Assembly (NCBI RefSeq): GCF_036365525.1
Contig: NC_090378.1
Coordinates: 123,055,593-123,119,592 of the forward strand
Origin: Heterodontus francisci
Taxonomy: Eukaryota
DNA length: 64,000 nt
Direction of reading: 5' to 3'
Under the pieces are notes generated by a model, which searched no databases, was not told the origin of the DNA, and was given only the letters and a program-made list of their open reading frames with translations. A program made the translations under genes and the position numbers. Shown here one piece after another: positions 1 through 37,119 of this stretch (position 1 is the stretch's first letter; each line of letters starts with the position of its first letter).

Positions 1-3000
1 ATGGACACACATTCCAACCTCCTGTACTGAAACATCCCACAGTTATATATAATATATAATAATGGATACACATTCCCACTTCCTGTACTGACACATCCCA
101 CAGTTATATATAATATATAATAATGGACACACATTCCCACCTCCTGTACTGAAACATCCCACAGTTATATATAATATATAATAATGGATACACATTCCCA
201 CTTCCAGTACTGACACATCCCACAGTTATATATAATATATAATGATGGATACACATTCCCACTTCCTGTACTGACACATCCCACAGTTATATATAATATA
301 TAATAATGGATACACATTCCCACTTCCTGTACTGACACATCCCACAGTTATATATAATATATAATAATGGATACACATTCCCACTTCCTGTACTGACACA
401 TCCCACAGTTATATATAATATATAATAATGGACACACATTCCCACCTCCTGTACTGACACATCCCACAGTTATATATAATATATAATAATGGACACACAT
501 TCCCACCTCCTGTACTGAAACATCCCACAGTTATATAAAATATATAATAATGGATACACATTCCCACCTCCTGTACTGACACATCCCACAGTTAAATATA
601 ATATATAATAATGGATACACATTCCCACTTCCTGTACTGACACATCCCACAGTTATATATAATATATAATAATGGACACACATTCCCACCTCCTGTACTG
701 AAACATCCCAGTTATATATAATATATAATAATGGATACACATTCCCACTTCCTGTACTGACACATCCCACAGTTATATATAATATATAATAATGGATACA
801 CATTCCCACTTCCTGTACTGACACATCCGACAGTTATATATAATATATAATAATGGATACACATTCCCACTTCCTGTACTGACACGTCCCACAGTTATAT
901 ATAGTATATAATAATGGATACACATTCCCACCTCCTGTACTGACACATCCCACAGTTATATATAATATATAATAATGGATACACATTCCCACATCCTGTA
1001 CTGACATGTCCCACAGTTATATATAATATATAATAATGGATACACATTCCCACTTCCTGTACTGACACATCCCACAGTTATATATAAGATATAATAATGG
1101 ATACACATTCCCACTTCCTGTACTGACACATCCCACAGTTATATATAATATATAATAATGGACACACATTCCCACCTCCTGTACTGAAACATCCCACAGT
1201 TATATATAATATATAATAATGGATACACATTCCCACTTCCTGTACTGACACATCCCACAGTTATATATAATATATAATAATGGACACATATTCCCACCTC
1301 CTGTACTGAAACATCCCACAGTTATATATAATATATAATAATGGATACACATTCCCACTTCCTGTACTGACACATCCCACAGTTATATATAATATATAAT
1401 AATGGATACACATTCCCACTTCCTGTACTGACACATCCCACAGTTATATATAATATATAATAATGGACACACATTCCCACCTCCTGTACTGAAACATCCC
1501 ACAGTTATATATAATATATAATAATGGAAACACATTCCCACTTCCTGTACTGACACATCCCACAGTTATATATAATATATAATAATGGATACACATTCCC
1601 ACTTCCTGTACTGACACATCCCACAGTTATATATAATATATAATAATGGACACACATTCCCACCTCCTGTACTGAAACATCCCACAGTTATATATAATAT
1701 ATAATAATGGATACACATTCCCACTTCCTGTACTGACACATCCCACAGTTAAATATAATATATAATAATGGATACACATTCCCACTTCCTGTACTGACAC
1801 ATCCCACAGTTATATATAATATATAATAATGGACACACATTCCCACCTCCTGTACTGAAACATCCCACAGTTATATATAATATATAATAATGGATACACA
1901 TTCCCACTTCCTGTACTGACACATCCCACAGTTATATATAATATATAATAATGGATACACATTCCCACTTCCTGTACTGACACATCCCACAGTTATATAT
2001 AATATATAATAATGGATACACATTCCCACTTCCTGTACTGACACGTCCCACAGTTATATATAGTATATAATAATGGATAGACATTCCCACCTCCTGTACT
2101 GACACATCCCACAGTTATATATAATATATAATAATGGATACACATTCCCACATCCTGTACTGACACGTCCCACAGTTATATATAAGATATAATAATGGAT
2201 ACACATTCCCACTTGCTGTACTGACACATCCCACAGTTATATATAATATATAATAATGGATACACATTCCCACTTCCTGTACTGACACATCCCACAGTTA
2301 TATATAATATATAATAATGGACACACATTCCCACCTCCTGTATTGAAACATCCCACAGTTATATATAATATATAATAATGGATACACATTCCCACTTCCT
2401 GTACTGACACATCGCACAGTTATAAATAATATATAATAATGGACACACATTCCCACCTCCTGTACTGAAACATCCCACAGTTATATATAATATATAATAA
2501 TGGATACACATTCCCACTTCCTGTACTGACACATCCCACAGTTATATATAATATATAATAATGGACACATATTCCCACCTCCTGTACTGAAACATCCCTC
2601 AGTTATATATGATATATAATAATGGATACACATTCCCACTTCCTGTCCTGACACATCCCACAGTTATACATAATATATAATAATGGATACACATTCCCAC
2701 TTCCTGTACTGACACATCCCACAGTTATATATAATATATAATAATGGACACACATTCCCACCTCCTGTACTGAAACATCCCACAGTTATATATAATATAT
2801 AATAATGGAAACACATTCCCACTTCCTGTACTGACACATCCCACAGTTATATATAATATATAATAATGGATACACATTCCCACTTCCTGTACTGACACAT
2901 CCCACAGTTATATATAATATATAATAATGGACACACATTCCCACCTCCTGTACTGAAACATCCCACAGTTATATATAATATATAATAATGGATACACATT

Positions 3001-6000
3001 CCCACTTCCTGTACTGACACATCCCACAGTTAAATATAATATATAATAATGGATACACATTCCCACTTCCTGTACTGACACATCCCACAGTTATATATAA
3101 TATATAATAATGGACACACATTCCCACCTCCTGTACTGAAACATCCCACAGTTATATATAATATATAATAATGGATACACATTCCCACTTCCTGTACTGA
3201 CACATCCCACAGTTATATATAATATATAATAATGGATACACATTCCCACTTCCTGTACTGACACATCCCACAGTTATATATAATATATAATAATGGATAC
3301 ACATTCCCACTTCCTGTACTGACACATCCCACAGTTAAATATAATATATAATAATGGATACACATTCCCACTTCCTGTACTGACACATCCCACAGTTATA
3401 TATAATATATAATAATGGATACACATTCCCACTTCCTGTACTGACACATCCCACAGTTAAATATAATATATAATAATGGATACACATTCCCACATCCTGT
3501 ACTGACACGTCCCACAGTTATATATAATATATAATAATGGATACACATTCCCACTTCCTGTACTGACACATCCCACAGTTATATATAAGATATAATAATG
3601 GATACACATTCCCACTTCCTGTACTGACACATCCCACAGTTATATATTACATATAATAATGGATACACATTCCCACTTCCTGTACTGACACATCCCACAG
3701 TTATATATAAGATATAATAATGGATACACATTCCCACTTCCTGTACTGACACATCCCACAGTTATATATTACATATAATAATGGATACACATTCCCAATT
3801 CCTGTACTGACACATCCCACAGTTATATATAATATATAATAATGGACACATATTCCCACCTCCTGTACTGAAACATCCCACAGTTATATATAATATATAA
3901 TAATGGATACACATTCCCACTTCCTGTACTGACACATCCCACAGTTAAGTATAATATATAATAATGGATACACATTCCCACTTCCTGTACTGACACATCC
4001 CACAGTTATATATAATATATAATAATGGACACACATTCCCACCTCCTGTACTGAAACATCCCACAGTTATATATAATATATAATAATGGATACACATTCC
4101 CACTTCCTGTACTGAAACATCCCACAGTTATATATTAATATATAATAATGGATACACATTCCCACAACCTGTACTGACACGTCGCACAGTTATATATAAT
4201 ATATAGTAATGGACACACATTCCCACCTCCTGTACTGAAACATCCCACAGTTATATATAATATATAATATTGGATACACATTCCCACTTCCTGTACTGAC
4301 ACATCCCACAGTTATATATAATATATAATAATGGACGCACATTCCCACCTCCTGTCCTGACACATCCCACAGTAAAAAATAATATATAATAATGGACACA
4401 CAGTCCCACCTCCTGTACTGACACATCCCACAATTATATATAATATATAATAATGGGCACACATTCCCACCTCCTGTCCTGACACATCCCACAGTAAAAA
4501 ATAATGTATAATAATTGACACACAGTCCCACCTCCTGTACTGACACGTCCCACAGTTATATATAATATATAATAATGGATACACATTCCCACTTCCTGTA
4601 CTGACACATCCCACAGTTATATATAATATATAATAATGGATACACATTCCCACTTCCTGTACTGACACATCCCACAGTTAAATATAATATATAATAATGG
4701 ATACACATTCCCACTTCCTGTACTGACACATCCCACAGTTATATATAATATATAATAATGGATACACATTCCCACTTCCTGTACTGACACATCCCACAGT
4801 TATATATAATATATAATAATGGATACACATTCCCACTTCCTGTACTGACACATCCCACAGTTAAATATAATATATAATAATGGATACACATTCCCACTTC
4901 CTGTACTGACACATCCCACAGTTATATATAATATATAATAATGGATACACATTCCCACTTCCTGTACTGACACATCCCACAGTTAAATATAATATATAAT
5001 AATGGATACACATTCCCACTTCCTGTACTGACACATCCCACAGTTATATATAATATATAATAATGGATACACATTCCCACTTCCTGTACTGACACATCCC
5101 ACAGTTAAATATAATATATAATAATGGATACACATTCCCACATCCTGTACTGACACGTCCCACAGTTATATATAATATATAATAATGGATACACATTCCC
5201 ACTTCCTGTACTGACACATCCCACAGTTATATATAAGATATAATAATGGATACACATTCCCACTTCCTGTACTGACACATCCCACAGTTATATATTACAT
5301 ATAATAATGGATACACATTCCCACTTCCTGTACTGACACATCCCACAGTTATATATAAGATATAATAATGGATACACATTCCCACTTCCTGTACTGACAC
5401 ATCCCACAGTTATATATTACATATAATAATGGATACACATTCCCACTTCCTGTACTGACACATCCCACAGTGAGATATAATATATAATAATGGACACATA
5501 TTCCCACCTCCTGTACTGAAACATCCCTCAGTTATATATGATATATAATAATGGATACACATTCCCACTTCCTGTCCTGACACATCCCACAGTTATACAT
5601 AATATATAATAATGGATACACATTCCCACTTCCTGTACTGACACATCCCACAGTTATATATAATATATAATAATGGACACACATTCCCACCTCCTGTACT
5701 GAAACATCCCACAGTTATATATAATATATAATAATGGAAACACATTCCCACTTCCTGTACTGACACATCCCACAGTTATATATAATATATAATAATGGAT
5801 ACACATTCCCACTTCCTGTACTGACACATCCCACAGTTATATATAATATATAATAATGGACACACATTCCCACCTCCTGTACTGAAACATCCCACAGTTA
5901 TATATAATATATAATAATGGATACACATTCCCACTTCCTGTACTGACACATCCCACAGTTAAATATAATATATAATAATGGATACACATTCCCACTTCCT

Positions 6001-9000
6001 GTACTGACACATCCCACAGTTATATATAATATATAATAATGGACACACATTCCCACCTCCTGTACTGAAACATCCCACAGTTATATATAATATATAATAA
6101 TGGATACACATTCCCACTTCCTGTACTGACACATCCCACAGTTATATATAATATATAATAATGGATACACATTCCCACTTCCTGTACTGACACATCCCAC
6201 AGTTATATATAATATATAATAATGGATACACATTCCCACTTCCTGTACTGACACATCCCACAGTTAAATATAATATATAATAATGGATACACATTCCCAC
6301 TTCCTGTACTGACACATCCCACAGTTATATATAATATATAATAATGGATACACATTCCCACTTCCTGTACTGACACATCCCACAGTTAAATATAATATAT
6401 AATAATGGATACACATTCCCACATCCTGTACTGACACGTCCCACAGTTATATATAATATATAATAATGGATACACATTCCCACTTCCTGTACTGACACAT
6501 CCCACAGTTATATATAAGATATAATAATGGATACACATTCCCACTTCCTGTACTGACACATCCCACAGTTATATATTACATATAATAATGGATACACATT
6601 CCCACTTCCTGTACTGACACATCCCACAGTTATATATAAGATATAATAATGGATACACATTCCCACTTCCTGTACTGACACATCCCACAGTTATATATTA
6701 CATATAATAATGGATACACATTCCCAATTCCTGTACTGACACATCCCACAGTTATATATAATATATAATAATGGACACATATTCCCACCTCCTGTACTGA
6801 AACATCCCACAGTTATATATAATATATAATAATGGATACACATTCCCACTTCCTGTACTGACACATCCCACAGTTAAGTATAATATATAATAATGGATAC
6901 ACATTCCCACTTCCTGTACTGACACATCCCACAGTTATATATAATATATAATAATGGACACACATTCCCACCTCCTGTACTGAAACATCCCACAGTTATA
7001 TATAATATATAATAATGGATACACATTCCCACTTCCTGTACTGAAACATCCCACAGTTATATATTAATATATAATAATGGATACACATTCCCACAACCTG
7101 TACTGACACGTCGCACAGTTATATATAATATATAGTAATGGACACACATTCCCACCTCCTGTACTGAAACATCCCACAGTTATATATAATATATAATATT
7201 GGATACACATTCCCACTTCCTGTACTGACACATCCCACAGTTATATATAATATATAATAATGGACGCACATTCCCACCTCCTGTCCTGACACATCCCACA
7301 GTAAAAAATAATATATAATAATGGACACACAGTCCCACCTCCTGTACTGACACATCCCACAATTATATATAATATATAATAATGGGCACACATTCCCACC
7401 TCCTGTCCTGACACATCCCACAGTAAAAAATAATGTATAATAATTGACACACAGTCCCACCTCCTGTACTGACACGTCCCACAGTTATATATAATATATA
7501 ATAATGGATACACATTCCCACTTCCTGTACTGACACATCCCACAGTTATATATAATATATAATAATGGATACACATTCCCACTTCCTGTACTGACACATC
7601 CCACAGTTAAATATAATATATAATAATGGATACACATTCCCACTTCCTGTACTGACACATCCCACAGTTATATATAATATATAATAATGGATACACATTC
7701 CCACTTCCTGTACTGACACATCCCACAGTTATATATAATATATAATAATGGATACACATTCCCACTTCCTGTACTGACACATCCCACAGTTAAATATAAT
7801 ATATAATAATGGATACACATTCCCACTTCCTGTACTGACACATCCCACAGTTATATATAATATATAATAATGGATACACATTCCCACTTCCTGTACTGAC
7901 ACATCCCACAGTTAAATATAATATATAATAATGGATACACATTCCCACTTCCTGTACTGACACATCCCACAGTTATATATAATATATAATAATGGATACA
8001 CATTCCCACTTCCTGTACTGACACATCCCACAGTTAAATATAATATATAATAATGGATACACATTCCCACATCCTGTACTGACACGTCCCACAGTTATAT
8101 ATAATATATAATAATGGATACACATTCCCACTTCCTGTACTGACACATCCCACAGTTATATATAAGATATAATAATGGATACACATTCCCACTTCCTGTA
8201 CTGACACATCCCACAGTTATATATTACATATAATAATGGATACACATTCCCACTTCCTGTACTGACACATCCCACAGTTATATATAAGATATAATAATGG
8301 ATACACATTCCCACTTCCTGTACTGACACATCCCACAGTTATATATTACATATAATAATGGATACACATTCCCACTTCCTGTACTGACACATCCCACAGT
8401 GAGATATAATATATAATAATGGACACATATTCCCACCTCCTGTACTGAAACATCCCACAGTTATATATAATATATAATAATGGATACACATTCCCACTTC
8501 CTGTACTGACACATCCCACAGTTAAGTATAATATATAATAATGGATACACATTCCCACTTCCTGTACTGACACATCCCACAGTTATATATAATATATAAT
8601 AATGGACACACATTCCCACCTCCTGTACTGAAACATCCCACAGTTATATATAATATATAATAATGGATACACATTCCCACTTCCTGTACTGAAACATCCC
8701 ACAGTTATATATTAATATATAATAATGGACACACATTCCCACAACCTGTACTGACACGTCGCACAGTTATATATAATATATAATAATGGACACACATTCC
8801 CACCTCCTGTACTGAAACATCCCACAGTTATATATAATATATAATATTGGATACACATTCCCACTTCCTGTACTGACACATCCCACAGTTATATATAATA
8901 TATAATAATGGATGCACATTCCCACCTCCTTTACTGAAACATCCCACAGTAAAAAATAATATATAATAATGGACACACAGTCCCACCTCCTGCACTGACA

Positions 9001-12000
9001 CATCCCACAGTTATATATAATATATAATAATGGACACACAGTCCCACCTCCTGTACTGACACATCCCACAGTTATATATAATATATAATAATGGGCACAC
9101 AGTCCCACCTCCTGCACTGACACATCCCACAGTTATATATAATATATAATAATGGACACACATTCCCACCTCCTGTCCTGACACATCCCACAGCAAAAAA
9201 TAATATATAATAATCGACACACAGTCCCACCTCCTGTACTGACACGTCCCACAGTTATATATAATATATAATAATGGACACACAGTCCCACTTCCTGTAA
9301 TGACACATCCCACAGTTATATATAATATATAATAATGGACACACAGTCCCACCTCCTGTACTGACACATCCCACAGTTATATATAATATATATTAATGGA
9401 CTCACAGTCCCACCTCCTGTACTGACACATCCCACAGTTATATATAATATATAATAATGAAGACACAGTCCCACCTCCTGTATTGACACGTCCCACAGTT
9501 ATATATAATATATAATAATGGACACACAGTCCCACTTCCTGTAATGACACATCCCACAGTTATATATAATATATAATAATGGACACACAGTCCCACCTCC
9601 TGTACTGACACATCCCACAGTTATATATAATATATAATCATGGACACACAGTCCCACCTCCTGTACTGACACGTCCCACAGTGATATATAATATATAATA
9701 ATGGACAGACCGTCCCACCTCCTGTACTGACACATCCCACAGTTATATATAATATATTATAATGGACAGACAGTCCCACCTCCTTAACTGACATACCCCA
9801 CAGTCATATACAATATATAATAATGGACACACAGTCCCACCTCCTGTCATGACATATCCCACAGTTATATATAATATATAATAATGGACACACCGTCCCA
9901 CCTCCTTTACTGACACGTCCCACAGTTATATATAATATATATGAATGGACACACAGTCCCACCTTCTGTATGACACTTCCCACAGTTATATACATTGTAT
10001 AATAAAGGACACGCAGTCCCACCTCCTGTACTGACACTTTGCACAGTTATTTTCAATGTATAATAAAGGACACGCAGTCCCACCTCCTGTACTGACACTT
10101 CCCTCAGTTATATATAATATATAATAATGGACACAAGTCCCACCTTCTGTATGACACATCCCACAGTGATATATAATATATAATAATGGACTCACAGTCC
10201 CACTTCCTGTAATGACACATCCCACAGTTATATATAATATATAATAATGGACACACCGTCCCACCTCCTTTACTGACACGTCCCACAGTTATATATAATA
10301 TATATGAATGGACACACAGTCCCACCTTCTGTATGACACATCCCACAGTTATATACAATATATAATAAAGGACACGTAGTCCCACCTCCTGTACTGACAC
10401 ATCCCACAGTTATATATAATATATAATAATGGACACACAGTCCCACCTCCTGTACTGACAAGTCCCACAGTGATATATAATATATAATAATGGACAGACC
10501 GTCCCACCTCCTGTACTGACACATCCCACAGTTATATATAATATATTATAATGGACAGACAGTCCCACCTCCTGAACTGACATACCCCACAGTAATATAC
10601 AATATATAATAATGGACACACAGTCCCACCTCCTGCACTGACACGTCCCACAGTTATATATAATATATATGAATGGATACACATTCCCACCTCCTGTACT
10701 GAAACATCCCACAGTACAAAATAATATATAATAAAGGACACACAGTCCCACCTCCTGCACTGACACATCCCACAGTTATATATAATATATAATAATGGGC
10801 ACACATTCCCACCTCCTGTCCTGACACATCCCACATTTATATATAATATATAATAATGGACACACAGTCCCACCTCCTGTACTGACACATCCCACAGTTA
10901 TATACAATATATAATAATGGACACACAGTCCCACCTCCTGTACTGACACATCCCACAGTTATATATAATATATAATAATGGACACACAGTCCCACCTCCT
11001 GTACTGACACGTCCCACAGTTATATATAATATATAATAATGGACTCACAGTCCCACCTCCTGTACTGACACATCCCACAGTTATATATAATATATAATAA
11101 TGAACACACAGTCCCACCTCCTGTATTGACACGTCCCACAGTTATATATAATATATAATAATGGACACACAGTCCCACTTCCTGTAATGACACATCCCAC
11201 AGTTATATATAATATATAATAATGGACACACAGTCCCACCTCCTGTACTGACACATCCCACATTTATATATAATATATATTAATGGACTCACAGTCCCAC
11301 CTCCTGTACTGACACATCCCACAGTTATATATAATATATAATAATGAACACACAGTCCCACCTCCTGTATTGACACGTCCCACAGTTATATATAATATAT
11401 AATAATGGACACAAAGTCCCACTTCCTGTAATGACACATCCCACAGTTATATATAATATATAATAATGGACACACAGTCCCACCTCCTGTACTGACACAT
11501 CCCACAGTTATATATAATATATAATCATGGACACACAGTCCCACCTCCTGTACTGACACGTCCCACAGTGATATATAATATATAATAATGGACAGACCGT
11601 CCCACCTCCTGTACTGACACATCCCACAGTTATATATAATATATTATAATGGACAGACAGTCCCACCTCCTGAACTGACATACCCCACAGTCATATTCAA
11701 TATATAATAATGGACACACAGTCCCACCTCCTGTACTGACACTTTGCACAGTTATTTTCAATGTATAATAAAGGACACGCAGTCCCACCTCCTGTACTGA
11801 CACTTCCCTCAGTTATATATAATATATAATAATGGACACACAGTCCCACCTTCTGTATGACACATCCCACAGTGATATATAATATATAATAATGGACTCA
11901 CAGTCCCACTTCCTGTAATGACACATCCCACAGTTATATATAATATATCATTATGGACACACCGTCCCACCTCCTTTACTGACACGTCCCACAGTTATAT

Positions 12001-15000
12001 ATAATATATATGAATGGACACACAGTCCCACCTTCTGTATGACACATCCCACAGTTATATACAATATATAATAAAGGACACGCAGTCCCACCTCCTGTAC
12101 TGACACATCCCACAGTTATATATAATATATAATAATGGACACACAGTCCCACCTCCTGTACTGACACGTCCCACAGTGATATATAATATATAATAATGGA
12201 CAGACCGTCCCACCTCCTGTACTGACACATCCCACAGTTATATATAATATATTATAATGGACAGACAGTCCCACCTCCTGAACTGACATACCCCACAGTA
12301 AAAAATAATATATAATAATGGACATACAGTCCCACCTCCTGCACTGACACATCCCACAGTTATATATAATATATAATAATGGACACACAGTCCCACTTCC
12401 TGCACTGACACGTCCTACAGTTATATATAATATTTTATAATGGATACGCATTCCCACTTCCTGTACTGACACATCCCACAGCAAAAAATAATATATAGTA
12501 ATGGACACACAGTCCCACCTCCTGCACTGACACATCCCACAGATATATATAATATATAATAATGGATACACATTCCCACATCCTGTACTGACACGACCCA
12601 CAATTATATATAATATATAATAATGGACACACAGTCCCACCTCCTGTACTGACACATCTCACAGATATATATAATATATAATAATGGACACACAGTCCCA
12701 CCTCCTGTCCTGACACATCTCACAGTTATATAAAATATACAATAATGGACACACATTCCCACCTCCTGCACGGACACATCCCACAGTTATATATAATATT
12801 AATAATGGACACACAGTCCCACCTCCTGCACTGACAATTCCCACAGTTATATATAATATATAATAATGGATACACATTCCCACTTCCTGTACAGACACGT
12901 CCCACAGTTATATATAATATGTAATAATGGATACACATTCCCACTTCCTGTACTGACACGTCCCACAGTTACATATAATATATAATAATGGATACACATT
13001 CCCACCTCCTGTACTGAAACATCCCACAGTAAAAAATAATATATAACAATGGACACACATTCCCACTTCCTGTACTGACACGTCCCACAGTTATATATAA
13101 TATATAATAATGGACACACAGTCCCACCTCCTGCACTGACACATCCCACAGTTATATATAATATATAATAATGGATACACATTCCCACTTCCTGTACTGA
13201 AACATCCCACAGTAAAAAATAATATATAACAATGGACACACATTCCCACTTCCTGTACTGACACGTCCCACAGTTATATATAATATATAATAATGGACAC
13301 ACAGTCCCACCTCCTGCACTGACACATCCCACAGTTATATATAATATATAATAATGGATACACATTCCCACTTCCTGTACTGACACATCCCACAGTTATA
13401 TATAACATATAATAATGGATACACATTCCCACCTTCTGTACTGACACATCCCACAGTAAACAATAATATATAATAATGGATACACAGTCCCACCTCCTGC
13501 ACTGACACATCCCACAGTTATATATAATATATAATAATGGACACACAGTCCCACCTCCTGCACTGACACATCCCACAGTTAAAGATAATATATAGTAATG
13601 GATACACATTTCCACCTCCTGTACAGACACGTCCCACAGTAAAAAATAATATATAATAATGGATACACATTCCCACCTCCTGTACTGACACATCTCACTG
13701 TTATATAAAATATACAATAATGGACACACATTCCCTCCTCCTGTACTGACACATCCCACAGTTATATATAATATATAATAATGGATACACAGTCCCACCT
13801 CCTGCACTGACACATCCCACAGTTATATATAATATATAATAATGGATACACTGTCCCACTTCCTGCACTGACACGTCCCACAGTTATATATAATATGTAA
13901 TAATGGATACACATTCCCACTTCCTGTACTGACACGTCCCACAGTTACATATAATATATAATAATGGATACACATTCCCACCTCCTGTACTGAAACATCC
14001 CACAGTAAAAAATAATATATAACAATGGACACACATTCCCACTTCCTGTACTGACACGTCCCACAGTTATATATAATATATAATAATGGACACACAGTCC
14101 CACCTCCTGTACTGACACAACCCACAGTTATATATAATATATCATAATGGAAACACAGTCCCACCTCCTGAACTGACACAACCCACAGTTTTATATAATA
14201 TATCATAATGGACACACAGTCCCACCTCCTGTACTGACACATCTCACAGTTATATAAAATATATAATAATGGACACACAGTCCCACCTCCTGTACTGACA
14301 CAACCCACAGTTATATATAATATATCATAATGGAACCACAGTCCCACCTCCTGCACTGACACAACCCACAGTTTTATATAATATATAATAATGGACACAC
14401 AGTCCCACCTCCTGTACTGACACATCTCACAGTTATATAAAATATACAATAATGGACACACAGTCCCACCTCCTGTACTGACACATCCCACAGTTATATA
14501 TAATATATAATAATGGATACACAGTCTCACCTCCTGCACCGACACGTCCCACAGTAATATATAATATATAATAATGGATACACATTCCCACCTCCTGTAC
14601 TGACACATCCCACAGTAAAAAATAATATATAATAATGGATACACAGTCCCACCTCCTGCACCGACACATCCCACAGTAAAAAATAATATATAATAATGGA
14701 TACACAGTCCCACCTCCTGCACCGACACATCCCACAGTTATATATAATATATAATAATGGATACACATTCCCACCTCCTGCACTGACACATCCCACATTT
14801 ATATATAATATATAATAATGGATACACATTCCCACCTCCTGCACTGACACATCCCACAGTAAAAAATAATATATAATAATGTACACACAGTCCCACCTCC
14901 TGCACCGACACATCCCACAGTTATATATAATATATAATAATGGATACACGTTCCCACTTCCTGGACTGACACGTCCCACGGTAAAAAATAATATATAATA

Positions 15001-18000
15001 ATGGATACACAGTCCCACCTCCTGCACCGACACATCCCACAGTTATATATAATATATAATAATGGATACACAATCCCACCTCCTGTACTGACACATCCCT
15101 CAGTAAAAAATAATATATTATAATGGACACACAGTCCCACCTCCTGCACTGACACATCCCACAGTTATATATAACATATAATAATGGATACACATTCCCA
15201 CCTCCTGCACTGACACATCCCACAGTAATATATAAAATATAATAATGGATACACAGTCCCACCTCCTGCACTGACACATCCCACAGTTATATATAATATG
15301 TAATAATGGATACACATTCCCACTTCCTGTACTGACACGTCCCACAGTTATATATAATATATAATAATGGATACACATTCCCACTTCCTGTACTGACACG
15401 TCCCACAGTTAGAGAAATATATAATAATGGACACACAGTCCCACCTCCTGTACTGACACATCCCACAGTTATATATAATATACAATAATGGACACACAGT
15501 CACGCCTCCTGCACTGACACGTCCCACAGTTATATATAATATATAATATTGGACACACAGTCCCACCTCCTGTACTGACACGTCCCACATTTATATATAA
15601 CATATAATAATGGACACACAGTCCCACTTCCTGTACTGATACATCCCACAGTTATATATAATATATAATATTGGACACACATTCCCAATTCCTGTACTGA
15701 CATGTCCCACAGTTATATATAATATATAATAATGGACACACAGTCCCACCTCCTGCACTGACACATCCCACAGTTATATATAATATATAATATTGGACAC
15801 ACATTCCCAATTCCTGTACTGACATGTCCCACAGTTATATATAATATATAATAATGGATACACAGTCCCACCTCCTGCACTGACACATCCCACAGTTATA
15901 TATAATATATAATAATGGATACACTGTCCCACTTCCTGCACTGACACGTCCCACAGTTATATATAATATGTAATAATGGATACACATTCCCACTTCCTGT
16001 ACTGACACGTCCCACAGTTACATATAATATATAATAATGGATACACATTCCCACCTCCTGTACTGAAACATCCCACAGTAAAAAATAATATATAACAATG
16101 GACACACATTCCCACTTCCTGTACTGACACGTCCCACAGTTATATATAATATATAATAATGGACACACAGTCCCACCTCCTGTACTGACACAACCCACAG
16201 TTATATATAATATATCATAATGGAAACACAGTCCCACCTCCTGAACTGACACAACCCACAGTTTTATATAATATATCATAATGGACACACAGTCCCACCT
16301 CCTGTACTGACACATCTCACAGTTATATAAAATATATAATAATGGACACACAGTCCCACCTCCTGCACTGACACATCCCACAGTTAAAGATAATATATAA
16401 TAATGGATACACATTTCCACCTCCTGTACAGACACGTCCCACAGTAAAAAATAATATATAATAATGGATACACATTCCCACCTCCTGTACAGACACATCT
16501 CACAGTTATATAAAATATACAATAATGGACACACAGTCCCTCCTCCTGTACTGACACATCCCACAGTGATATATAATATATAATAATGGATACACATTCC
16601 CACCTCCTGTACAGACACGTCCCACAGTAAAAAATAATATATAATAATGGATACACATTCCCACCTCCTGTACTGACACATCTCACTGTTATATAAAATA
16701 TACAATAATGGACACACAGTCCCTCCTCCTGTACTGACACATCCCACAGTTATATATAATATATAATAATGGATACACAGTCCCACCTCCTGCACTGACA
16801 CATCCCACAGTTATATATAATATATAATAATGGATACACTGTCCCACTTCCTGCACTGACACGTCCCACAGTTATATATAATATGTAATAATGGATACAC
16901 ATTCCCACTTCCTGTACTGACACATCCCACAGTAAAAAATAATATATAACAATGGACACACATTCCCACTTCCTGTACTGACACGTCCCACAGTTATATA
17001 TAATATATAATAATGGACACACAGTCCCACCTCCTGTACTGACACAACCCACAGTTATATATAATATATAATAATGGATACACTGTCCCACTTCCTGCAC
17101 TGACACGTCCCACAGTTATATATAATATGTAATAATGGATACACATTCCCACTTCCTGTACTGACACATCCCACAGTAAAAAATAATATATAACAATGGA
17201 CACACATTCCCACTTCCTGTACTGACACGTCCCACAGTTATATATAATATATAATAATGGATACACTGTCCCACTTCCTGCACTGACACGTCCCACAGTT
17301 ACATATAATATATAATAATGGATACACATTCCCACCTCCTGTACTGAAACATCCCACAGTAAAAAATAATATATAACAATGGACACACATTCCCACTTCC
17401 TGTACTGACACGTCCCACAGTTATATATAATATATAATAATGGACACACAGTCCCACCTCCTGTACTGACACAACCCACAGTTATATATAATATATCATA
17501 ATGGAAACACAGTCCCACCTCCTGAACTGACACAACCCACAGTTTTATATAATATATCATAATGGACACACAGTCCCACCTCCTGTACTGACACATCTCA
17601 CAGTTATATAAAATATATAATAATGGACACACAGTCCCACCTCCTGTACTGACACAACCCACAGTTATATATAATATATCATAATGGAACCACAGTCCCA
17701 CCTCCTGCACTGACACAACCCACAGTTTTATATAATATATAATAATGGACACACAGTCCCACCTCCTGTACTGACACATCTCACAGTTATATAAAATATA
17801 CAATAATGGACACACAGTCCCACCTCCTGTACTGACACAACCCACAGTTATATATAATATATCATAATGGAAACACAGTCCCACCTCCTGAACTGACACA
17901 ACCCACAGTTTTATATAATATATCATAATGGACACACAGTCCCACCTCCTGTACTGACACATCTCACAGTTATATAAAATATATAATAATGGACACACAG

Positions 18001-21000
18001 TCCCACCTCCTGCACTGACACATCCCACAGTTAAAGATAATATATAATAATGGATACACATTCCCACTGCCTGTACTGAAACATCCCACAGTAAAAAATA
18101 ATATATAACAATGGACACACATTCCCACTTCCTGTACTGACACGTCCCACAGTTATATATAATATATAATAATGGACGCACAGTCCCACCTCCTGCACTG
18201 ACACATCCCACAGTTATATATAACATATAATAATGGATACACATTCCCACCTTCTGTACTGACACATCCCACAGTAAACAATAATATATAATAATGGATA
18301 CACAGTCCCACCTCCTGCACTGACACATCCCACAGTTATATATAATATATAATAATGGACACACAGTCCCACCTCCTGCACTGACACATCCCACAGTTAA
18401 AGATAATATATAATAATGGATACACATTTCCACCTCCTGTACAGACACGTCCCACAGTAAAAAATAATATATAATAATGGATACACATTCCCACCTCCTG
18501 TACAGACACATCTCACAGTTATATAAAATATACAATAATGGACACACAGTCCCACCTCCTGTACTGACACAACCCACAGTTATATATAATATATCATAAT
18601 GGAACCACAGTCCCACCTCCTGAACTGACACAACCCACAGTTTTATATAATATATCATAATGGACACACAGTCCCACCTCCTGTACTGACACATCTCACA
18701 GTTATATAAAATATATAATAATGGACACACAGTCCCACCTCCTGTACTGACACAACCCACAGTTATATATAATATATCATAATGGAACCACAGTCCCACC
18801 TCCTGCACTGACACAACCCACAGTTTTATATAATATATAATAATGGACACACAGTCCCACCTCCTGTACTGACACATCTCACAGTTATATAAAATATACA
18901 ATAATGGACACACAGTCCCACCTCCTGTACTGACACATCCCACAGTTATATATAATATATAATAATGGATACACAGTCCCACCTCCTGCACCGACACGTC
19001 CCACAGTAATATATAATATATAATAATGGATACACATTCCCACCTCCTGTACTGACACATCCCACAGTTATATATAATATATAATAATGGATACACAGTC
19101 CCACCTCCTGCACCGACACATCCCACAGTTATATATAATATATAATAATGGATACACATTCCCACCTCCTGCACTGACACATCCCACAGTAAAAAATAAT
19201 ATATAATAATGGATACACAGTCCCACCTCCTGCACCGACACATCCCACAGTAATATATAATATATAATAATGGATACACATTCCCACCTCCTGTACTGAC
19301 ACATCCCACAGTAAAAAATAATATATAATAATGGATACACAGTCCCACCTCCTGCACCGACACATCCCACAGTAATATATAATATATAATAATGGATACA
19401 CATTCCCACCTCCTGTACTGACACATCCCACAGTAAAAAATAATATATAATAATGGATACACAGTCCCACCTCCTGCACTGACACATCCCACAGTTATAT
19501 ATAACATATAATAATGGATACACATTCCCACCTCCTGTACTGACACATCCCACAGTAAAAAATAATATATAATAATGGATACACAGTCCCACCTCCTGCA
19601 CCGACACATCCCACAGTAATATATAATATATAATAATGGATACACATTCCCACCTCCTGTACTGACACATCCCACAGTAAAAAATAATATATAATAATGG
19701 ATACACAGTCCCACCTCCTGCACTGACACATCCCACAGTTATATATAACATATAATAATGGATACACAATCCCACCTCCTGTACTGATACATCCCACAGT
19801 TATATATAACATATAATAATGGATACACAATCCCACCTCCTGTACTGACACATCCCACAGTAAAAAATAATATATAATAATGGATACACATTCCCACCTC
19901 CTGCACTGACACATCCCACAGTAATATATAAAATATAATAATGGATACACAGTCCCACCTCCTGCACTGACACATCCCACAGTTATATATATGTAATAAT
20001 GGATACACATTCCCACTTCCTGTACTGACACATCCCACAGTTATATATAATATATAATAATGGACACACAGTCCCACCTCCTGCACTGACACATCCCACA
20101 GTTATATATAATATGTAATAATGGATACACATTCCCACTTCCTGTACTGACACGTCCCACAGTTATATATAATATATAATAATGGATACACATTCCCAAT
20201 TCCTGTACTGACACGTCCCACAGTTAGAGAAATATATAATAATGGACACACAGTCACGCCTCCTGCACTGATACATCCCACAGTTAGAGATAATATATAA
20301 TAATGGACACACAGTCCCACCTCCTGTACTGACACATCCCACAGTTATATATAATATATAATAATGGACACACAGTCACGCCTCCTGCACTGACACGTCC
20401 CACAGTTATATATAATATATAATAATGGACACACAGTCCCACCTCCTGTACTGACACGTCCCACATTTATATATAACATATAATAATGGACACACAGTCC
20501 CACCTCCTGCACTGACACATCCCACAGTTATATATAATATATAATATTGGACACACATTCCCAATTGCTGTACTGACACATCCCACAGTTATATATAATA
20601 TATAATAATGGACACACAGTCCCACCTCCTGCACCGACACATCCCACAGTAATATATAAAATATAATAATGGATACACAATCCCACCTCCTGCACTGACA
20701 CATCCCACAGTTATATATAATATGTAATAATGGATACACATTCCCACTTCCTGAACTGAAACATCCCACAGTAAAAAATAATATATAACAATGGACACAC
20801 ATTCCCACTTCCTGTACTGACACGTCCCACAGTTATATATAATATATAATAATGGACACACAGTCCCACCTCCTGTACTGACACAACCCACAGTTATATA
20901 TAATATATCATAATGGAAACACAGTCCCACCTCCTGAACTGACACAACCCACAGTTTTATATAATATATCATAATGGACACACAGTCCCACCTCCTGTAC

Positions 21001-23280
21001 TGACACATCTCACAGTTATATAAAATATATAATAATGGACACACAGTCCCACCTCCTGTACTGACACGTCTCACAGTTATATATAATATGTAATAATGGA
21101 TACACATTCCCACTTCCTGAACTGAAACATCCCACAGTAAAAAATAATATATAACAATGGACACACATTCCCACTTCCTGTACTGACACGTCCCACAGTT
21201 ATATAAAATATATAATAATGGACACACAGTCCCACCTCCTGTACTGACACATCCCACAGTTATATATAATATAGAATAATGGACACACAGTCCCACCTCC
21301 TGGACTGACACATCCCACAGTTATATATAATATATAATAATGGACACACAGTCCCACCTCCTGTACTGACACATCTCACAGTTATATAAAATATACAATA
21401 ATGGACACACAGTCCCACCTCCTGTACTGACACATCCCACAGTTATATATAATATATAATAATGGATACACAGTCCCACCTCCTGCACCGACACGTCCCA
21501 CAGTAATATATAATATATAATAATGGATACACATTCCCACCTCCTGTACTGACACATCCCACAGTAAAAAATAATATATAATAATGGATACACAGTCCCA
21601 CCTCCTGCACCGACACATCCCACAGTTTTATATAATATATAATAATGGATACACAGTCCCACCTCCTGTACTGACACAACCCACAGTTATATATAATATA
21701 TCATAATGGAAACACAGTCCCACCTCCTGCACTGACACAACCCACAGTTTTATATAATATATCATAATGGACACACAGTCCCACCTCCTGTACTGACACA
21801 TCTCACAGTTATATAAAATATACAATAATGGACACACAGTCCCACCTCCTGTACTGACACATCCCACAGTTATATATAATATATAATAATGGATACACAG
21901 TCCCACCTCCTGCACCGACACGTCCCACAGTAATATATAATATATAATAATGGATACACATTCCCACCTCCTGTACTGACACATCCCACAGTAAAAAATA
22001 ATATATAATAATGGATACACAGTCCCACCTCCTGCACCGACACATCCCACAGTTTTATATAATATATAATAATGGATACACATTCCCACTTCCTGGACTG
22101 ACACGTCCCACAGTAAAAAATTATATATAATAATGGATACACAGTCCCACCTCCTGCACCGACACATCCCACAGTAATATATAAAATATAATAATGGATA
22201 CACAGTCCCACCTCCTGTACTGACACATCCCTCAGTAAAGAATAATATATAATAATGGATACACATTCCCCATTCCTGTACTGACACGTCCCACAGTTAT
22301 ATATAATATATAATAATGGATACACAGTCCCACCTCCTGCACTGACACATCCCACAGTTATATATAATATATAATAATGGATATACATTCCCACTTCCTG
22401 CACTGACACGTCCCACAGTTATATATAATATGTAATAATGGATACACATTCCCACTTCCTGTACTGACACGTCCCACAGTTATATATAATATATAATAAT
22501 GGATACACATTCCCACCTCCTGAACTGAAACATCCCACAGTATAAAATAATATATGACAATGGACACACATTCCCACTTCCTGTACTGACACATCCCACA
22601 GTTAGATATAATATATAATAATGGACACACAGTCCCACCTCCTGTACTGACACGTCCCACAGTTATATATAATATATAATAATGGACACACATTCCCACT
22701 TCCTGTACTGACACATCCCACAGTTATATATAATATATAATAATGGACACACAGTCCCACCTCCTGTACTGACACAACCCACAGTTAGATATAATATATA
22801 ATAATGGAAACACAGTCCCACCTCCTGAACTGACACAACCCACAGTTTTATATAATATATAATAATGGACACACAGTCCCACCTCCTGTACTGACACATC
22901 TCACAGTTATATAAAATATATAATAATGGACACACAGTCCCACCTCCTGTACTGACACAACCCACAGTTATATATAATATATCATAATGGAAACACAGTC
23001 CCACCTCCTGCACTGACACAACCCACAGTTTTATATAATATATAATAATGGACACACAGTCCCACCTCCTGTACTGACACATCCCACAGTTTTATATAAT
23101 ATATAATAATGGACACACAGTCCCACCTCCTGTACTGACACAACCCACAGTTATATAAAATATATAATAATGGACACACAGTCCCACCTCCTGTACTGAC
23201 ACATCCCACAGTTATATATAATATATAATAATGGACACACAGTCCCACCTCCTGTACTGACACATCCCACAGTTATATTT
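1..23280. repeat. 61-bp tandem satellite/minisatellite array, about 380 copies, running off the left edge of the window
   Basis: Consensus ATGGATACACATTCCCACTTCCTGTACTGACACATCCCACAGTTATATATAATATATAATA repeats head-to-tail with period 61 until about 23280. It explains all the MSVQEVG.../CIHYYILY ORFs. Confidence 0.99.
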
Positions 23281-23719
23281 ATTATCTAATAAGCAGACGG
23301 TGTATTAAAACAGTTGCTTCAATCTCCAGTCTTATATATCTGGGAAATATTTCCTGTTTTGTGCAGTGCTGCCACATGTGTCGATGAGAGTGTTGACAGA
23401 AACATTCCCCTGAACGGTGTGAGGAATTGGGAAAGGATGGAGGAGTTTAGAGAGGACGAGGAGCTGCTGTCTTCATCAGTGAGAATCTCACAGCTCTGGA
23501 GATTTGACATTTTGCTTCATTCGATTCTCTCTGGGTTCTGGTGGAGTCGCTTCATGAGCACAGACTAATTATTGATCATTATTATTGACCCCCCACCCCT
23601 GGTCAGACACCCCAGGTCAGTTACTATGGAAACAGGTTTCTTCTCATCTGATTGGACTATCTGCTTGACACAATTTTCACCAATCAAAATCCAATTTAGA
23701 AAAGTGTCGAAATGAATAA

Positions 23720-24160
23720 AACTGAAATCATAAATAGAAAGCAAACTGAACAAATTAAAGCCTGATGTTATTTTCACTATCCACTACACACTCCTGTCCC
23801 TGTGGTGCCCACTGCAGCCTGAAGGCCTCAAGTGACCCAGCAGACACCCCCTGCTCCTTCTCCAGGGCCACCCGGGTGGGGACAAAGCCGTGGTAGATAG
23901 ACTGGCAGCCAGTGGCACCACCCCCATGGGTCCCATCCAACTCGGGCCAGTGGATGGACACCTTGGCCAGGCCCAGGAGCAGACCCACGAGGAGGGGCCT
24001 CCAACCTGCCCACTCCCCTCTGCACTGGGTGGCCAAAGATCAGGAGCGTGGGCCTGAATTAGAACCAGAGGATGAGGAGCAGCCCCTTCAAATAATGGAA
24101 CAGGGGCCACAACCTCTCCCACTCCATGTAGACATGATCCACCGACTCTGAAACTCACTG
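23720..24160 (-). mobile_element. Tx1-clade non-LTR retrotransposon, degenerate 3' fragment of ORF2
   Basis: Minus-strand translation LLVGLLLGLAKVSIH...RVALEKEQGVSAGSLEAFR.QWAPQG.ECVVD closely parallels the C-terminus of the longer Tx1 copy at 43328-43846. Confidence 0.85.
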
Positions 24161-24399
24161 TTTTCAAATGGTCCATGAGGAAGACCAGAGTCAGCAACAG
24201 AAACATCACATTTACAGAAACACTCCTCCCCTTTTTTCCAGGGCACAGGCAGGTGAGCTCGGTTTGCTGGGAGATTTTCATTTTCCAGGAATTGAGTGGC
24301 TCCAGGTTTTTCCATCTGATGTGGTGGGAAGAGCAGCTGGAAGATTTATCATCGACAAGTAGAATTCCCAACTTTCCCAAGCACGGCGGCATGGAATTC

Positions 24400-24493
24400 A
24401 AACAGAGAGAGAGAGTGAAGCAGAGACAGTAGGAGAGAGAGAGAAACAGAGACAGTGGGAGAGAGAGAATGACAGAAAGAGAGATATTGGGGG
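24400..24493. repeat. GA-rich simple repeat next to the assembly gap
   Basis: (GA)n/(GACA) purine tract. Confidence 0.85.
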
Positions 24494-24652
24494 NNNNNNN
24501 NNNNNNNNNNNNNNNNNNNNNNNNNNNNNNNNNNNNNNNNNNNNNNNNNNNNNNNNNNNNNNNNNNNNNNNNNNNNNNNNNNNNNNNNNNNNNNNNNNNN
24601 NNNNNNNNNNNNNNNNNNNNNNNNNNNNNNNNNNNNNNNNNNNNNNNNNNNN
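24494..24652. other. assembly gap (159 N)
   Basis: Run of n characters. Confidence 1.
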
Positions 24653-24689
24653 GGGAAAGAGCACAAGAGGGACAGCGTGAGAGAGAGAG

Positions 24690-25463
24690 ATGGCTGGTTG
24701 GCCCAGTGGACATTGGGACTCTGACGTCTGGCCTGTATGAGGGTCCCGAGCCTGCCCATGTCATCAGCACTCGCCGGAGCAACTTTCTGGGAGGCAGCCT
24801 CCTAATTGGTCACCTCCACACTCACTGTCCTATTAATGATGGCGGTCAGGCTCCCGAGCCTGCAGGCCCAATCAGAGGGCCCACAGTGATGTCAGGCTGG
24901 CAGCTCCACCGGGAGAGGTGGGCCCTGCTGAAACAGGCAGGCGAGAGTGAGGGCCCCTCAACATGGAGACGCCCTCGGCTGCCTGCAGAGGAATAGTAAA
25001 ATACAAAGGGCTGAAGCCAGTTGGGCCATCAGGTTGAAGAGGGTTAGGGTTAGGAAACTCCTCCACAGGATTATTCACAGGCGGGACTGCAGCTTTTCAT
25101 CCCTGTAGCTCTGTCATTGGGACATAGAGTCTCCGTCTCCGATGGTCCCCTGGCCTGCTGCCGGGAGGGCTCCTCCATTGAACTGGCGGCCTCCACACTC
25201 GGGGGTGGGGAGGCCGCTCCGACGTTGGTAAAATACCAGCACCGGCTCAAAAATGGCCCCTAAATGTGAACTTCATTGCTCTAATTGTCTGCCCATCTCC
25301 ATGGAGCCAGCAGATGACCGGTTCCCAGTACACCCATGGGAAAGTAACCCGGAGGCGGGAATGTGTCAGGGAGCCATGTTGACACGGCTCGTCGTATTTT
25401 TCCCAGTCCTGCCCAACCTCCAAATGAGATCCCCGTCTCCATGGCACCGGGAGAATTCATCCC
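24690..25463. mobile_element. GC-rich non-autonomous interspersed element (possibly PIF/Harbinger-related MITE)
   Basis: Non-coding GC-rich block ending GGGAGAATTCATCCC. A similar terminus (GAAATTCCAGCCC) occurs at about 42365-42377. Family assignment is tentative. Confidence 0.35.
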
Positions 25464-25469
25464 AGTCTG

Positions 25470-26068
25470 TGAGAGACAGAGAGAGAGAAAGTGAGAGAGA
25501 GAGAAAGAGAGAGAGAGTGAGAGGGAGAAAAAGAGAGACAGAGTGAGAAAGAGAGACAAAGTGTGAGAGTGAGAGAGAGAGAAAGAGAAAGACAGCGAGA
25601 GGGAGAAAAATAGAGACAGAGTGAGACTGAATGAGATAGTGAGAGTGAGAAAGAGAGAGAGAGTGAGAGAGAGTGAGAAAGAGAGACAGTGAGTGAGAGA
25701 AAGAGAGAGACAGATTGAGAGAGAGTGTGAGAGAGAGAGAGCGTGTGACAGAGACAGAGTAACAGGGAGTGAGAGAGAGGGACATAATGAGAGAGTGAAA
25801 GAGACAGAGTGAGAGAAAACAATGAGAGAGAGACAGAATGTGAGAGAAACCCAAAGTAGCAGAGACAGAGTGCAACACTCTGTGAACGACACACACAGAC
25901 AGAGACAGACAGAAGCACACATAGAGACAGATACAAATATATATATATGGAGAGAGTGTGAGAGACAGAGACACACATACACACAGGCAAAGAGTGACAG
26001 AGAGAAAGACACAGTGACAGTGAAAGACAGAGAGAGGGTGAGAGTGAGTGAGTGAAACAGAGAGCAGA
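25470..26068. repeat. about 600-bp GA/GACA-rich microsatellite directly abutting the J RSS
   Basis: Strongly purine-biased (GAGA/GAGT/GACA)n on the + strand up to the nonamer at 26069. Confidence 0.95.
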
Positions 26069-26107
26069 GGATATTGTACAGCCCCTGCACTGGAAGCTGT
26101 CAGTGTG
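26069..26107 (+). other. 23-bp-spacer recombination signal sequence (RSS) 5' of the J segment
   Basis: Nonamer GGATATTGT (26069-26077; 7/9 to GGTTTTTGT), exactly 23-bp spacer (26078-26100), heptamer CAGTGTG (26101-26107; 6/7 to CACTGTG). A 23-RSS on J is the kappa-type configuration. Confidence 0.93.
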
Positions 26108-26142
26108 GTTAACGTTCGGTAAAGGAACCAAGCTCAGACTGA
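26108..26142 (+). CDS. IGKJ: Immunoglobulin light chain (kappa / type III / NS4-like) J segment, germline and unrearranged
   Basis: G TTA ACG TTC GGT AAA GGA ACC AAG CTC AGA CTG A = LTFGKGTKLRL with the FGxGT motif. A phase-1 donor GTAAGT follows at 26143. It splices in frame to the C exon (A+GC = Ser, then REKSQPTLTL). Confidence 0.96.
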
Positions 26143-33868: not shown

Positions 33869-34197
33869 GCCGAGAGAAGTCTCAACCCACACTGACCCTG
33901 ATGCCCCCCTCGCCGGAGGAGGTCAAGGCCAAGGGCACTGCCACCCTGGTGTGCCTTGCCGATCACTTCTATCCCGATGAAGTGGGGGTGGAGTGGAAGA
34001 AGGACGGTGCAGCCATTTCGGCCGGAGTTCAGACCAGCAATTACCTGCGAGCTTCGGACAGCACCTACAGTGTCAGCAGCCTGCTGACCCTCTCTGGCTC
34101 TGACTGGGAGTCCAACGCCCGCTTCTCCTGTGCCCTCACCCACGAGACCCTGTCCTCTCCCCTCAGTAAGAGTGTGAGCAGATCAGAATGTGTGTAG
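33869..34197 (+). CDS. IGKC: Immunoglobulin light chain constant exon, kappa / cartilaginous-fish type III (NS4-like), intact C1-set domain
   Basis: Pyrimidine tract and AG acceptor (33867-68), phase 1. Translation (S)REKSQPTLTLMPPSPEEVKAKGTATLVCLADHFYPDEVGVEWKKDG...DSTYSVSSLLTLSGSDWESNARFSCALTHETLSSPLSKSVSRSECV* has both Ig cysteines, the core Trp and the penultimate inter-chain Cys. Confidence 0.98.
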
Positions 34198-37115: not shown

Positions 37116-37119
37116 CAGT

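Follow-up and report, generated by a model that had tools for sequence, protein, structure and literature searches.

A 61-bp minisatellite with weak cryptic 23-RSS geometry fills the V-J intervals of the kappa light-chain clusters of a shark

Introduction

Upstream of a kappa J segment in the genome of Heterodontus francisci there is a long array of 61-bp monomers, a typical one of which has a CACAGT-led heptamer and, exactly 23 bp further on, a nonamer-like 9-mer. The question raised by this arrangement is whether these signals, which resemble 23-spacer recombination signal sequences (RSSs), have a role in V(D)J recombination, or whether they are a by-product of the formation of the array. 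Shark immunoglobulin clusters, with segments only about 400-500 bp apart, serve as a model of V(D)J recombination that does without long-range looping (PMC2435157, PMC2193156).

A first-pass annotation of the window, i.e. the whole stretch of 64,000 nucleotides analysed here, suggested that the array could be amplified RSS-derived sequence, a RAG decoy that silences the cluster, or a hotspot of germline RAG activity. In the following, we show that the geometry, the orientation and the Ig enrichment hold, while the RSS-derived origin, the silencing and the germline hotspot are not supported. Our preferred reading, to which we assign a probability of about 0.65, is that of a V-J-filling minisatellite, probably tolerated, whose weak cryptic 23-RSSs are a by-product of the duplication junction.

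Results and Discussion

The features of the window are collected in Table 1. The satellite found there is the end of a larger array (G000:C8:122957600-123078884, starting at window position about -97,992) that extends another 98 kb upstream, up to an intact kappa V gene. The array starts 7 bp behind the nonamer of the 12-RSS of this V, and the V-J interval is thus filled by it.

Table 1. Positions of the satellite, the kappa gene segments and other repeats in the window
Feature	Position	Strand	Remarks
Array 3' end, 61-bp monomers (TRF: period 61, 382 copies)	1..23292	+	whole array 121,285 bp
Example of a cryptic 23-RSS-like unit: CACAGTT, 23-bp AT-rich spacer, ACACATTCC (12/16)	38..76	+	the 9-mer is the beginning of the next monomer
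Distal, non-satellite part of the V-J interval (~2.8 kb): GA microsatellites, interspersed-repeat fragment	23293..26068		array-end flank in this region present in 19/28 kappa clusters
Bona fide J 23-RSS: CACACTG, 23-bp spacer, nonamer ACAATATCC	26069..26107	-	convergent with the V 12-RSS
Kappa J segment LTFGKGTKLRL	26108..26142	+	GT donor at 26143; in RNA-like contigs, V ends continue into these J letters
Kappa constant exon, intact, 109 codons to stop	33869..34197	+	1 of 28 copies within C8:115.7-124.8 Mb
45-bp minisatellite downstream of C	35401..39381		in the neighbouring cluster too; belongs to the duplicated cassette; no RSS likeness (9-10/16)
34-bp minisatellite	46041..52652		in the neighbouring cluster too; 10/16

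This layout recurs throughout the locus. The 28 V, 28 J and 28 C pair up in order, each cluster having one V (12-RSS), one J (23-RSS) and one C in the same orientation; we take them to be kappa (NS4/type III), on the basis of the RSS layout, the 186-bp leader intron and sequence likeness. Every V has CACAGTG and a near-consensus nonamer, and the array begins 7 bp past this nonamer in 28/28 clusters. No cluster is without an array, the shortest having about 55 copies. The V-J intervals range from 7.5 to 216.6 kb (median 48.9 kb), and 1.203 of the 1.316 Mb of fetched interval DNA is satellite. With 23 distinct V exons among the 28, the clusters are close relatives of each other. Some of them are mirror images, which may reflect a false duplication.

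Outside these intervals the repeat is almost absent. For the forward 18-mer core motif, 5,767 of the 5,804 copies in the 6-Gb genome are located inside the 13 plus-strand V-J intervals, with 37 unplaced, and the same intervals hold 1,660/1,662 copies of a forward 40-mer and 57/57 of a forward 30-mer. For the reverse 18-mers, about 5,370 of 5,387 are estimated to be in kappa intervals, the central 269 kb of five intervals on the minus strand being filled from mirror or closest copies. With more than 99% of the forward core copies in kappa V-J intervals, the Ig enrichment that the first-pass annotation proposed to look for is borne out, and the repeat does not occur broadly at non-immune loci; it is a locus-private minisatellite. 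Four other light-chain clusters of the same genome, likewise unjoined, were checked; their V and J are about 300-500 bp apart, and they do not contain the repeat. The array is not described in the literature that we searched; large V-J distances may be mentioned in type III papers of older date. Even if neutral, it represents a gene-internal spacer that has grown into a locus-private satellite of about 1.5 Mb.

The nurse shark NS4 clusters (kappa, type III; PMC2193156, PMC5192425) likewise have one V/J/C per cluster, a V 12-RSS, a J 23-RSS and a 186-bp leader intron. Their V-J interval, however, is 502-524 bp (PMC2193156), as compared to 7.5-217 kb of satellite here, and 0/28 of the present clusters are germline-joined. 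The shark IgH miniloci also have a cluster organisation, with clusters 100 kb or more apart, but the intersegmental distances are about 400 bp, and long-distance recombination and contraction were concluded to be absent (Malecek 2008, PMC2435157). The present kappa clusters, in contrast, need synapsis over up to 217 kb, which is as far as neighbouring clusters. They break the rule of shark recombination over about 400 bp: an entire light-chain isotype appears to recombine over 7-217 kb of satellite with every CAC facing J, and this J-facing orientation is the one in which scanning RAG detects CAC in mouse (PMC11153149). Since the 28 clusters are nearly identical but differ 30-fold in their intervals, they offer a natural experiment on the effect of distance, on scanning as opposed to diffusion, on joining within as opposed to between clusters, and on competition by cryptic signals. 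A practical consequence is that annotation by short reads or PCR will split these kappa genes.

We now turn to the RSS likeness of the monomer, which was scored as match counts over 16 positions (heptamer 7, nonamer 9). In the window, CACAGT(T/A/G) occurs in 356 monomers, 9 of them with CACAGTG, and 305 of the 356 have a nonamer with at least 6/9 matches exactly 23 bp after the heptamer. The common monomer signal is CACAGTT / ACACAGTCC, and the four RSS-like examples quoted in the first-pass annotation are all present at their positions. Among dinucleotide shuffles of the circular monomer, 88 of 20,000 (0.44%) reach 12/16, in either strand, with a spacer of 12 or 23, and 1.4% do so when +/-1 spacing is allowed; with the heptamer given, a 6/9 nonamer is obtained in 3.5% of the shuffles for a spacer of 23 and in 6.9% for one of 12 or 23. 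It should be pointed out that this significance is that of one event, a single monomer picked post hoc, and not of 380. In this comparison with shuffled monomers, the geometry is modestly above chance. For other repeat units of neighbouring and control loci, 0/26 TRF rows (several redundant) score above 10/16.

In the 121-kb array, the units share the orientation of the V RSS (CAC 8,306 vs GTG 128). The pairing partner named by the annotation, a kappa V 12-RSS upstream, is indeed present, and since it has the same orientation as the monomers, any V-to-satellite join would be an inversion. A reading of the monomer as a 12-RSS was discarded, as no more than 15 sites in 1.2 Mb score 12/16.

The A-tract at nonamer positions 5-7 is important for an RSS. 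It is missing here, nearly all monomers having AGT or ATT; in line with the caveat of the annotation, position 7 is T in 1918/1920 monomers of the 121-kb array, 29 of which have an A at position 6, and over all fetched arrays position 7 is T in 98%. The working J nonamer is likewise short of two As, the J 23-RSS having a match count of 13/16 (heptamer 6/7, nonamer 7/9). In the heptamers of all fetched arrays, CAC at positions 1-3 is kept at about 98% per column, and position 7 has T 17,895 times, A 407 times and G 230 times, such that most units lack the purine of a bona fide 23-RSS; a purine at this position (YpR step 6-7) is favoured about 7-fold (PMC9723617). Furthermore, the monomer signals are flanked by the previous monomer, and not by a coding gene segment as in a bona fide 23-RSS. 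The spacer begins with AT, which is the preferred start (PMC10536018), and the typical unit, at 12/16, is exactly at the 4-mismatch limit with which strong RSS-like sites were called (PMC11153149). There are 13,006 sites with at least 12/16 and 799 with at least 13/16, the score that the real J RSS itself has. These high-scoring units are patchy (0-236 per cluster), as drift in array turnover would give.

A related case is the mouse gamma-satellite, a tandem repeat with fortuitous 23-spacer signals; two of three tested cryptic 23-RS were reported to recombine at low level (Cowell 2003, PMC2193808). The present monomer is likewise a CAC-led 23-type signal above background (12/16, shuffle p 0.0044). 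The putative signals here differ in being confined to antigen receptor V-J intervals, 66 bp from a matching 12-RSS and in one orientation.

The origin of the geometry can be followed in other organisms. In DNA contigs of organism D, the V-RSS is followed by one monomer and then by unique flank, whereas 61-bp tandem joints in organism B reveal that the monomer has been amplified there too. In the single-copy state of organism D, the 'nonamer' is located upstream of the heptamer, which implies that the RSS geometry was made by the tandem duplication; without the tandem junction, as in the terminal monomer, the 9-mer at 23 bp matches in 1/9. Of 1,560 possible duplication units, 2.4% (23) or 3.8% (12 or 23) would yield 6/9. 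The proposed amplification of an RSS-derived sequence was thus rejected: the unit derives from V-J spacer DNA of an ordinary kind, and its likeness to the V and J RSSs is, by eye, limited to the heptamer. Another option considered was a microhomology origin of the duplication junction. The 5-of-6 criterion missed the real junction, and such an origin is therefore not claimed; 0/5 units selected in this way give the geometry.

Monomer length variation was counted with anchors. The half containing the spacer keeps its length, and with it the 23 bp of a bona fide 23-RSS, in 11,240/11,731 parsed monomers (95.8%), compared to 11,449/11,686 (98.0%) for the other half. The median non-major base frequency is 0.029 for the heptamer, 0.031 for the nonamer, 0.036 for the spacer and 0.043 for the rest, i.e. 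variability is slightly lower in the heptamer and the nonamer than in the columns outside the RSS-like unit. There is no extra conservation protecting the RSS geometry.

Concerning the germline state, 28/28 V and J signals are unrearranged. V-J joining is seen in RNA-like contigs, in which the 186-bp leader intron is spliced and V ends are followed by J; the RNA label is a guess, and the contigs come from one sample and drop rare variants, only the best-supported loose ends being listed. Eleven of these contigs carry a J allele unique to five clusters with 56-217 kb intervals, although hypermutation or another allele could mimic it. The contig variants also include alleles private to the 7.5, 21.5, 22.5/28.4, 31.2, 51.4 and 66 kb clusters, with a depth that cannot rank the clusters. 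Joined V-J kappa sequences are still made, apparently from long-interval clusters too, which lends no support to the suggested KDE-like silencing.

According to the preferred reading, a 61-bp stretch of single-copy DNA adjoining the V 12-RSS on its far side was likely duplicated in tandem in one ancestral cluster and would then have been copied along with the duplication of the cluster, the arrays subsequently growing, presumably independently and by unequal exchange or slippage, to 3-207 kb. V-J joining would be deletional and intra-cluster across the array, and because such joining deletes the array, the latter is likely tolerated. RAG would cut the monomers only at a low level, and this cryptic cutting would be weak and unselected.

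A number of observations count against the by-product reading. The geometry is unlikely under the nulls (0.44% for shuffling, 2-4% for the choice of junction), the 12/16 of the typical unit is at the strong-site limit, 799 units have at least 13/16, and the spacer start is the preferred AT. The heptamer and nonamer have lower variability, the array is present in every cluster and amplified in a second organism, and RAG cuts 23-cRSs of the mouse gamma-satellite (PMC2193808).

The array could instead be a selected decoy or kill switch, in which the V 12-RSS inverts with one of 55-3,400 monomers and not with the distant J, whereby the cluster is irreversibly inactivated and, as a result, fewer of the 28 clusters are expressed per B cell. 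The kappa deleting element (KDE/RS) is a single element downstream of C that deletes C. It is similar to the monomer in being a non-coding 23-type signal that in principle pairs with a kappa V 12-RSS, inactivating the locus, but here there are thousands of weak units between V and J, upstream of J, and joining would invert and not delete C. The shared orientation of the units and the V RSS, with 12/23 compatibility, is consistent with a decoy, as are the 13/16 of the J RSS itself, equalled by 799 units, the retention of the array in 28/28 clusters, and the RAG cutting of satellite 23-cRSs in mouse (PMC2193808). However, no strand-changing V-to-satellite joint is found among the 10 joints listed for X6, X2, X9 and X15, in contigs that show presence and not absence, while V-J-joined contigs are present, apparently from long-interval clusters. 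The heptamer, the spacer length and the nonamer are without a purifying signature, the geometry is missing in the single-copy state, and the high-scoring units are patchily distributed. We consequently regard a selected decoy as unlikely. Its far-reaching form, a repeat-based light-chain exclusion device in which about 24,000 cryptic 23-RSSs would compete with a weak and distant J and many clusters would be inverted off, is improbable as well; if true, array length and monomer variants would tune the output of each cluster. The satellite may have a low-level somatic decoy effect.

It is quite unlikely that what matters is the length of the array rather than its RSS likeness, with the spacer forcing long-range V-J synapsis and thereby tuning usage or blocking germline joining. 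Germline-joined clusters are 0/28 here versus 9/90 clones in nurse shark NS4 (PMC2193156), and according to a review, not every shark has kappa as its dominant light chain (PMC5192425). The former is weak as support, since the clusters are close relatives. Sigma-cart-like clusters with short intervals are also unjoined. Moreover, the 30-fold spread of interval lengths has no apparent optimum, and alleles private to clusters from 7.5 through 66 kb are all among the contig variants, the depth of which cannot rank them.

There is a very low probability that array birth and turnover are driven by RAG nicking the V RSS or the monomer heptamers in the germline. The constant 7-bp distance between V nonamer and array start in all clusters and the RAG-like germline joining reported in sharks (PMC2193156) would fit such nicks, but the 1.316 Mb of interval DNA contains 0 inverted core 18-mers, which together with the unrearranged V and J signals also argues against the germline hotspot of the annotation. 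In addition, the insertions fall in the AT-rich spacer with target duplications, with 0 among 21 insertion copies starting at the heptamer border, and the same cassettes contain other large satellites that lack RSS likeness.

Finally, it is most improbable that the monomer is an RSS-proximal CTCF site whose amplified copies anchor or impede V-J loop extrusion: the 11/14 match to a CTCF consensus just behind the V nonamer, with at least 12/14 in 1,802 units, is reached by 566/10,000 shuffles (5.7%; not significant) and has its mismatches at important positions, and the 13/14 sites found behind the RSS of TCR V genes in the same genome have the opposite orientation.

Results and Discussion

Table. 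Array and kappa genes within the window
Feature	Position	Remark
61-bp tandem array (interior at window start)	1-23292	382 copies
J with 23-RSS (CACACTG/23/ACAATATCC)	26069-26142	downstream of array
Intact kappa constant exon	33869-34197	downstream of array

The four RSS-like examples quoted by the first-pass annotation are exact, and in 305 of the 356 CACAGT(T/A/G) monomers of the window a nonamer of at least 6/9 follows after exactly 23 bp. The typical monomer has 12/16 consensus matches, a score reached in 88 (0.44%) of 20,000 shuffles that preserve the dinucleotides of the circular monomer; with the heptamer given, 3.5-6.9% of shuffles produce the nonamer. The resemblance counts as a single observation, not 380.

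The window spans C8:123,055,593-123,119,592. With the 200 kb upstream of it included, the full array measures 121,285 bp (~1,990 monomers). It begins 7 bp past the nonamer of a perfect 12-RSS that belongs to an intact V, and is therefore V-J intervening sequence. Genome searches returned 28 V, 28 C and 28 J at C8:115.7-124.8 Mb; in 28/28 clusters the repeat start behind the V nonamer is identical, and both signals are unrearranged. The V-J intervals range from 7.5 to 216.6 kb (median 48.9 kb; 1.586 Mb in total), and the satellite makes up 1.203 of the 1.316 Mb examined, which by extrapolation gives about 24,000 monomers in all intervals. In nine of the 28 clusters (e.g. L052, L053, L057, L061) a distal segment of 3.8-5.4 kb takes the place of the usual array-end flank. 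In the 80-kb cluster (L070, C8:120.123 Mb) the J heptamer is altered at CAC position 3, which would likely disable that J. An orphan kappa J with an RSS-like flank and an altered donor lies at C2:125.446 Mb (L073:5249-5357), and the 10 kb examined there contain neither V nor C nor satellite.

Since V exons are identical in five cluster pairs (23 distinct among 28) and the window's cluster shows 100% identity to its mirror copy over 4.4 and 3.8 kb, the figure of 28 may be too high owing to duplication that is very recent or false. Three consecutive clusters at C8:119.10-119.53 Mb recur inverted at 122.82-123.25 Mb with slightly different array lengths, either a very recent duplication or an assembly artefact.

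Across the genome the 18-base core matches 5,804 times forward and 5,387 times in reverse, the first listed match being at C8:115.68 Mb. Of the forward matches, 5,767 fall in the 13 plus-strand intervals, all complete, together with 1,660/1,662 forward matches of a 40-mer and 57/57 of the perfect-heptamer 30-mer. For the minus strand, where 10 of 15 intervals were examined whole and five without their middles, 70/70 reverse 30-mers among the matches listed sit in the intervals. The core is absent from 17/17 control loci of the same genome. A broad presence at non-immune loci, named in advance as contrary evidence, is thus not what is found. In four other unjoined light-chain clusters the V-J distance is ~300-500 bp. 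Unlike the unjoined kappa clusters, V-J genes on C23 (lambda-like), C13, C46 and C650 (L178, L179, L181-L186, L188, L190) are germline-joined.

We now turn to the origin of the repeat, for which contigs of organisms A, B and D were compared with a V end followed by a single monomer. In organism D the DNA contigs lead from the V RSS across one monomer and then into unique sequence that looks like the array-end flank of the window's cluster; in one of them a second copy occurs, at a period of no more than 57 bp. In organism B 61-bp units are joined head to tail, and DNA contigs of organism A provide confirmation of the tandem unit that does not depend on the assembly text (the sample may be the same). 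Where the monomer is single-copy, the 'nonamer' precedes the heptamer by 31 bp, past the last heptamer of the window array the 9-mer at 23 bp scores 1/9, and among 1,560 conceivable duplication units only 37 (2.4%) would give 6/9 at 23. Because of this, the RSS geometry is, as read from these sequences, made by the duplication, a somewhat unlikely outcome, and the proposed descent from an RSS is not borne out.

We estimate a probability of roughly 0.65 for duplication in an ancestral cluster, tolerated growth and low-level RAG cutting without sign of selection for it. The 61-bp piece behind the V RSS would have been duplicated, copied with every cluster duplication and then grown independently by unequal exchange or slippage; the array would be tolerated because V-J joining deletes it. 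Some monomers are probably cut by RAG together with the V 12-RSS, at a low level, and the resulting inversions would be non-productive. The heterodontid genome here is prone to such growth, as other large satellites occur in the same cassettes: upstream of V at C8:122.911-122.948 Mb (L012-L015) lie repeats of 36 bp x 745, 23 bp x 61 and 32 bp x 205.

Selection of the array as a decoy is the best of the alternatives, yet improbable. For a working signal, the heptamer CAC is intact and the 23-bp spacing is kept in 96% of monomers, and in the arrays examined 13,006 sites score at least 12/16 and 799 at least 13/16. In published work, 12/16 is the limit used for strong RSS-like sites (PMC11153149), AT, with which the monomer spacer starts, is the favoured spacer start (PMC10536018), mouse gamma-satellite 23-cRSs undergo low-level cutting (PMC2193808), and cryptic nonamers lower activity rather than abolish it (PMC12205992). 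Against it, heptamer position 7 is T in 96%, where a purine is favoured about 7-fold (PMC9723617, in part), and nonamer positions 6-7 are GT or TT. In length the spacer half enjoys no greater protection (95.8% kept) than the other half (98.0%), and heptamer and nonamer columns are only slightly less variable than the rest.

The suggested silencing of the cluster finds no support in two runs of one sample, both guessed to be RNA, in which the 186-bp leader intron is spliced and V ends are followed by J. In eleven contigs the J allele is one confined to the clusters with intervals of 55.9, 80.3, 123.6, 124.1 and 216.6 kb, which suggests joining across long arrays, with hypermutation, allelic variation and possible inter-cluster joins as caveats. 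None of the 10 joints listed changes strand, in contigs that drop rare variants. An effect of the array through spacer length is a still weaker candidate than the decoy. Satellite contigs in run X6, which is guessed to be RNA (on L010:2006-2068), may stem from germline transcripts of the array or from carry-over of DNA.

The layout matches the shark kappa cluster, but not its short interval (502-524 bp in nurse shark NS4, from part of PMC2193156, versus 7.5-216.6 kb here). Functionally the array is comparable at most to a satellite-borne cryptic RSS, and by position it is not a KDE. Long-distance recombination and contraction were concluded to be absent in shark IgH (Malecek 2008, PMC2435157, in the part available), to which these clusters would form an exception for kappa. 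An earlier description of the array was not found in the main texts searched, including parts of PMC5192425, PMC12227049 and PMC2192082, with some older papers outside the search.

Germline RAG activity, proposed as a hotspot, left no trace as 0 inverted cores in 1.316 Mb of interval DNA and 0 of 21 insertion copies starting at the heptamer border, and a drive of this kind is very improbable. These copies, mostly of one young LINE-like element, lie in the AT-rich spacer. The element, by its motif a putative member of the RTE clade, has 99% identical copies with a short tandem 3' tail (e.g. C8 arrays 123176603+10225 and 120203850-32673) and at least a dozen insertions into the AT-rich monomer part with 8-12 bp target duplications, some later multiplied along with the array.

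That the repeat serves as a CTCF array is equally hard to credit. Elsewhere, at C34:8.685-8.695 Mb (L192), TCR-like V genes recur at steps of 2.56 kb, and about 25 bp past the nonamer of each lies a CTCF-like site that scores 13/14.
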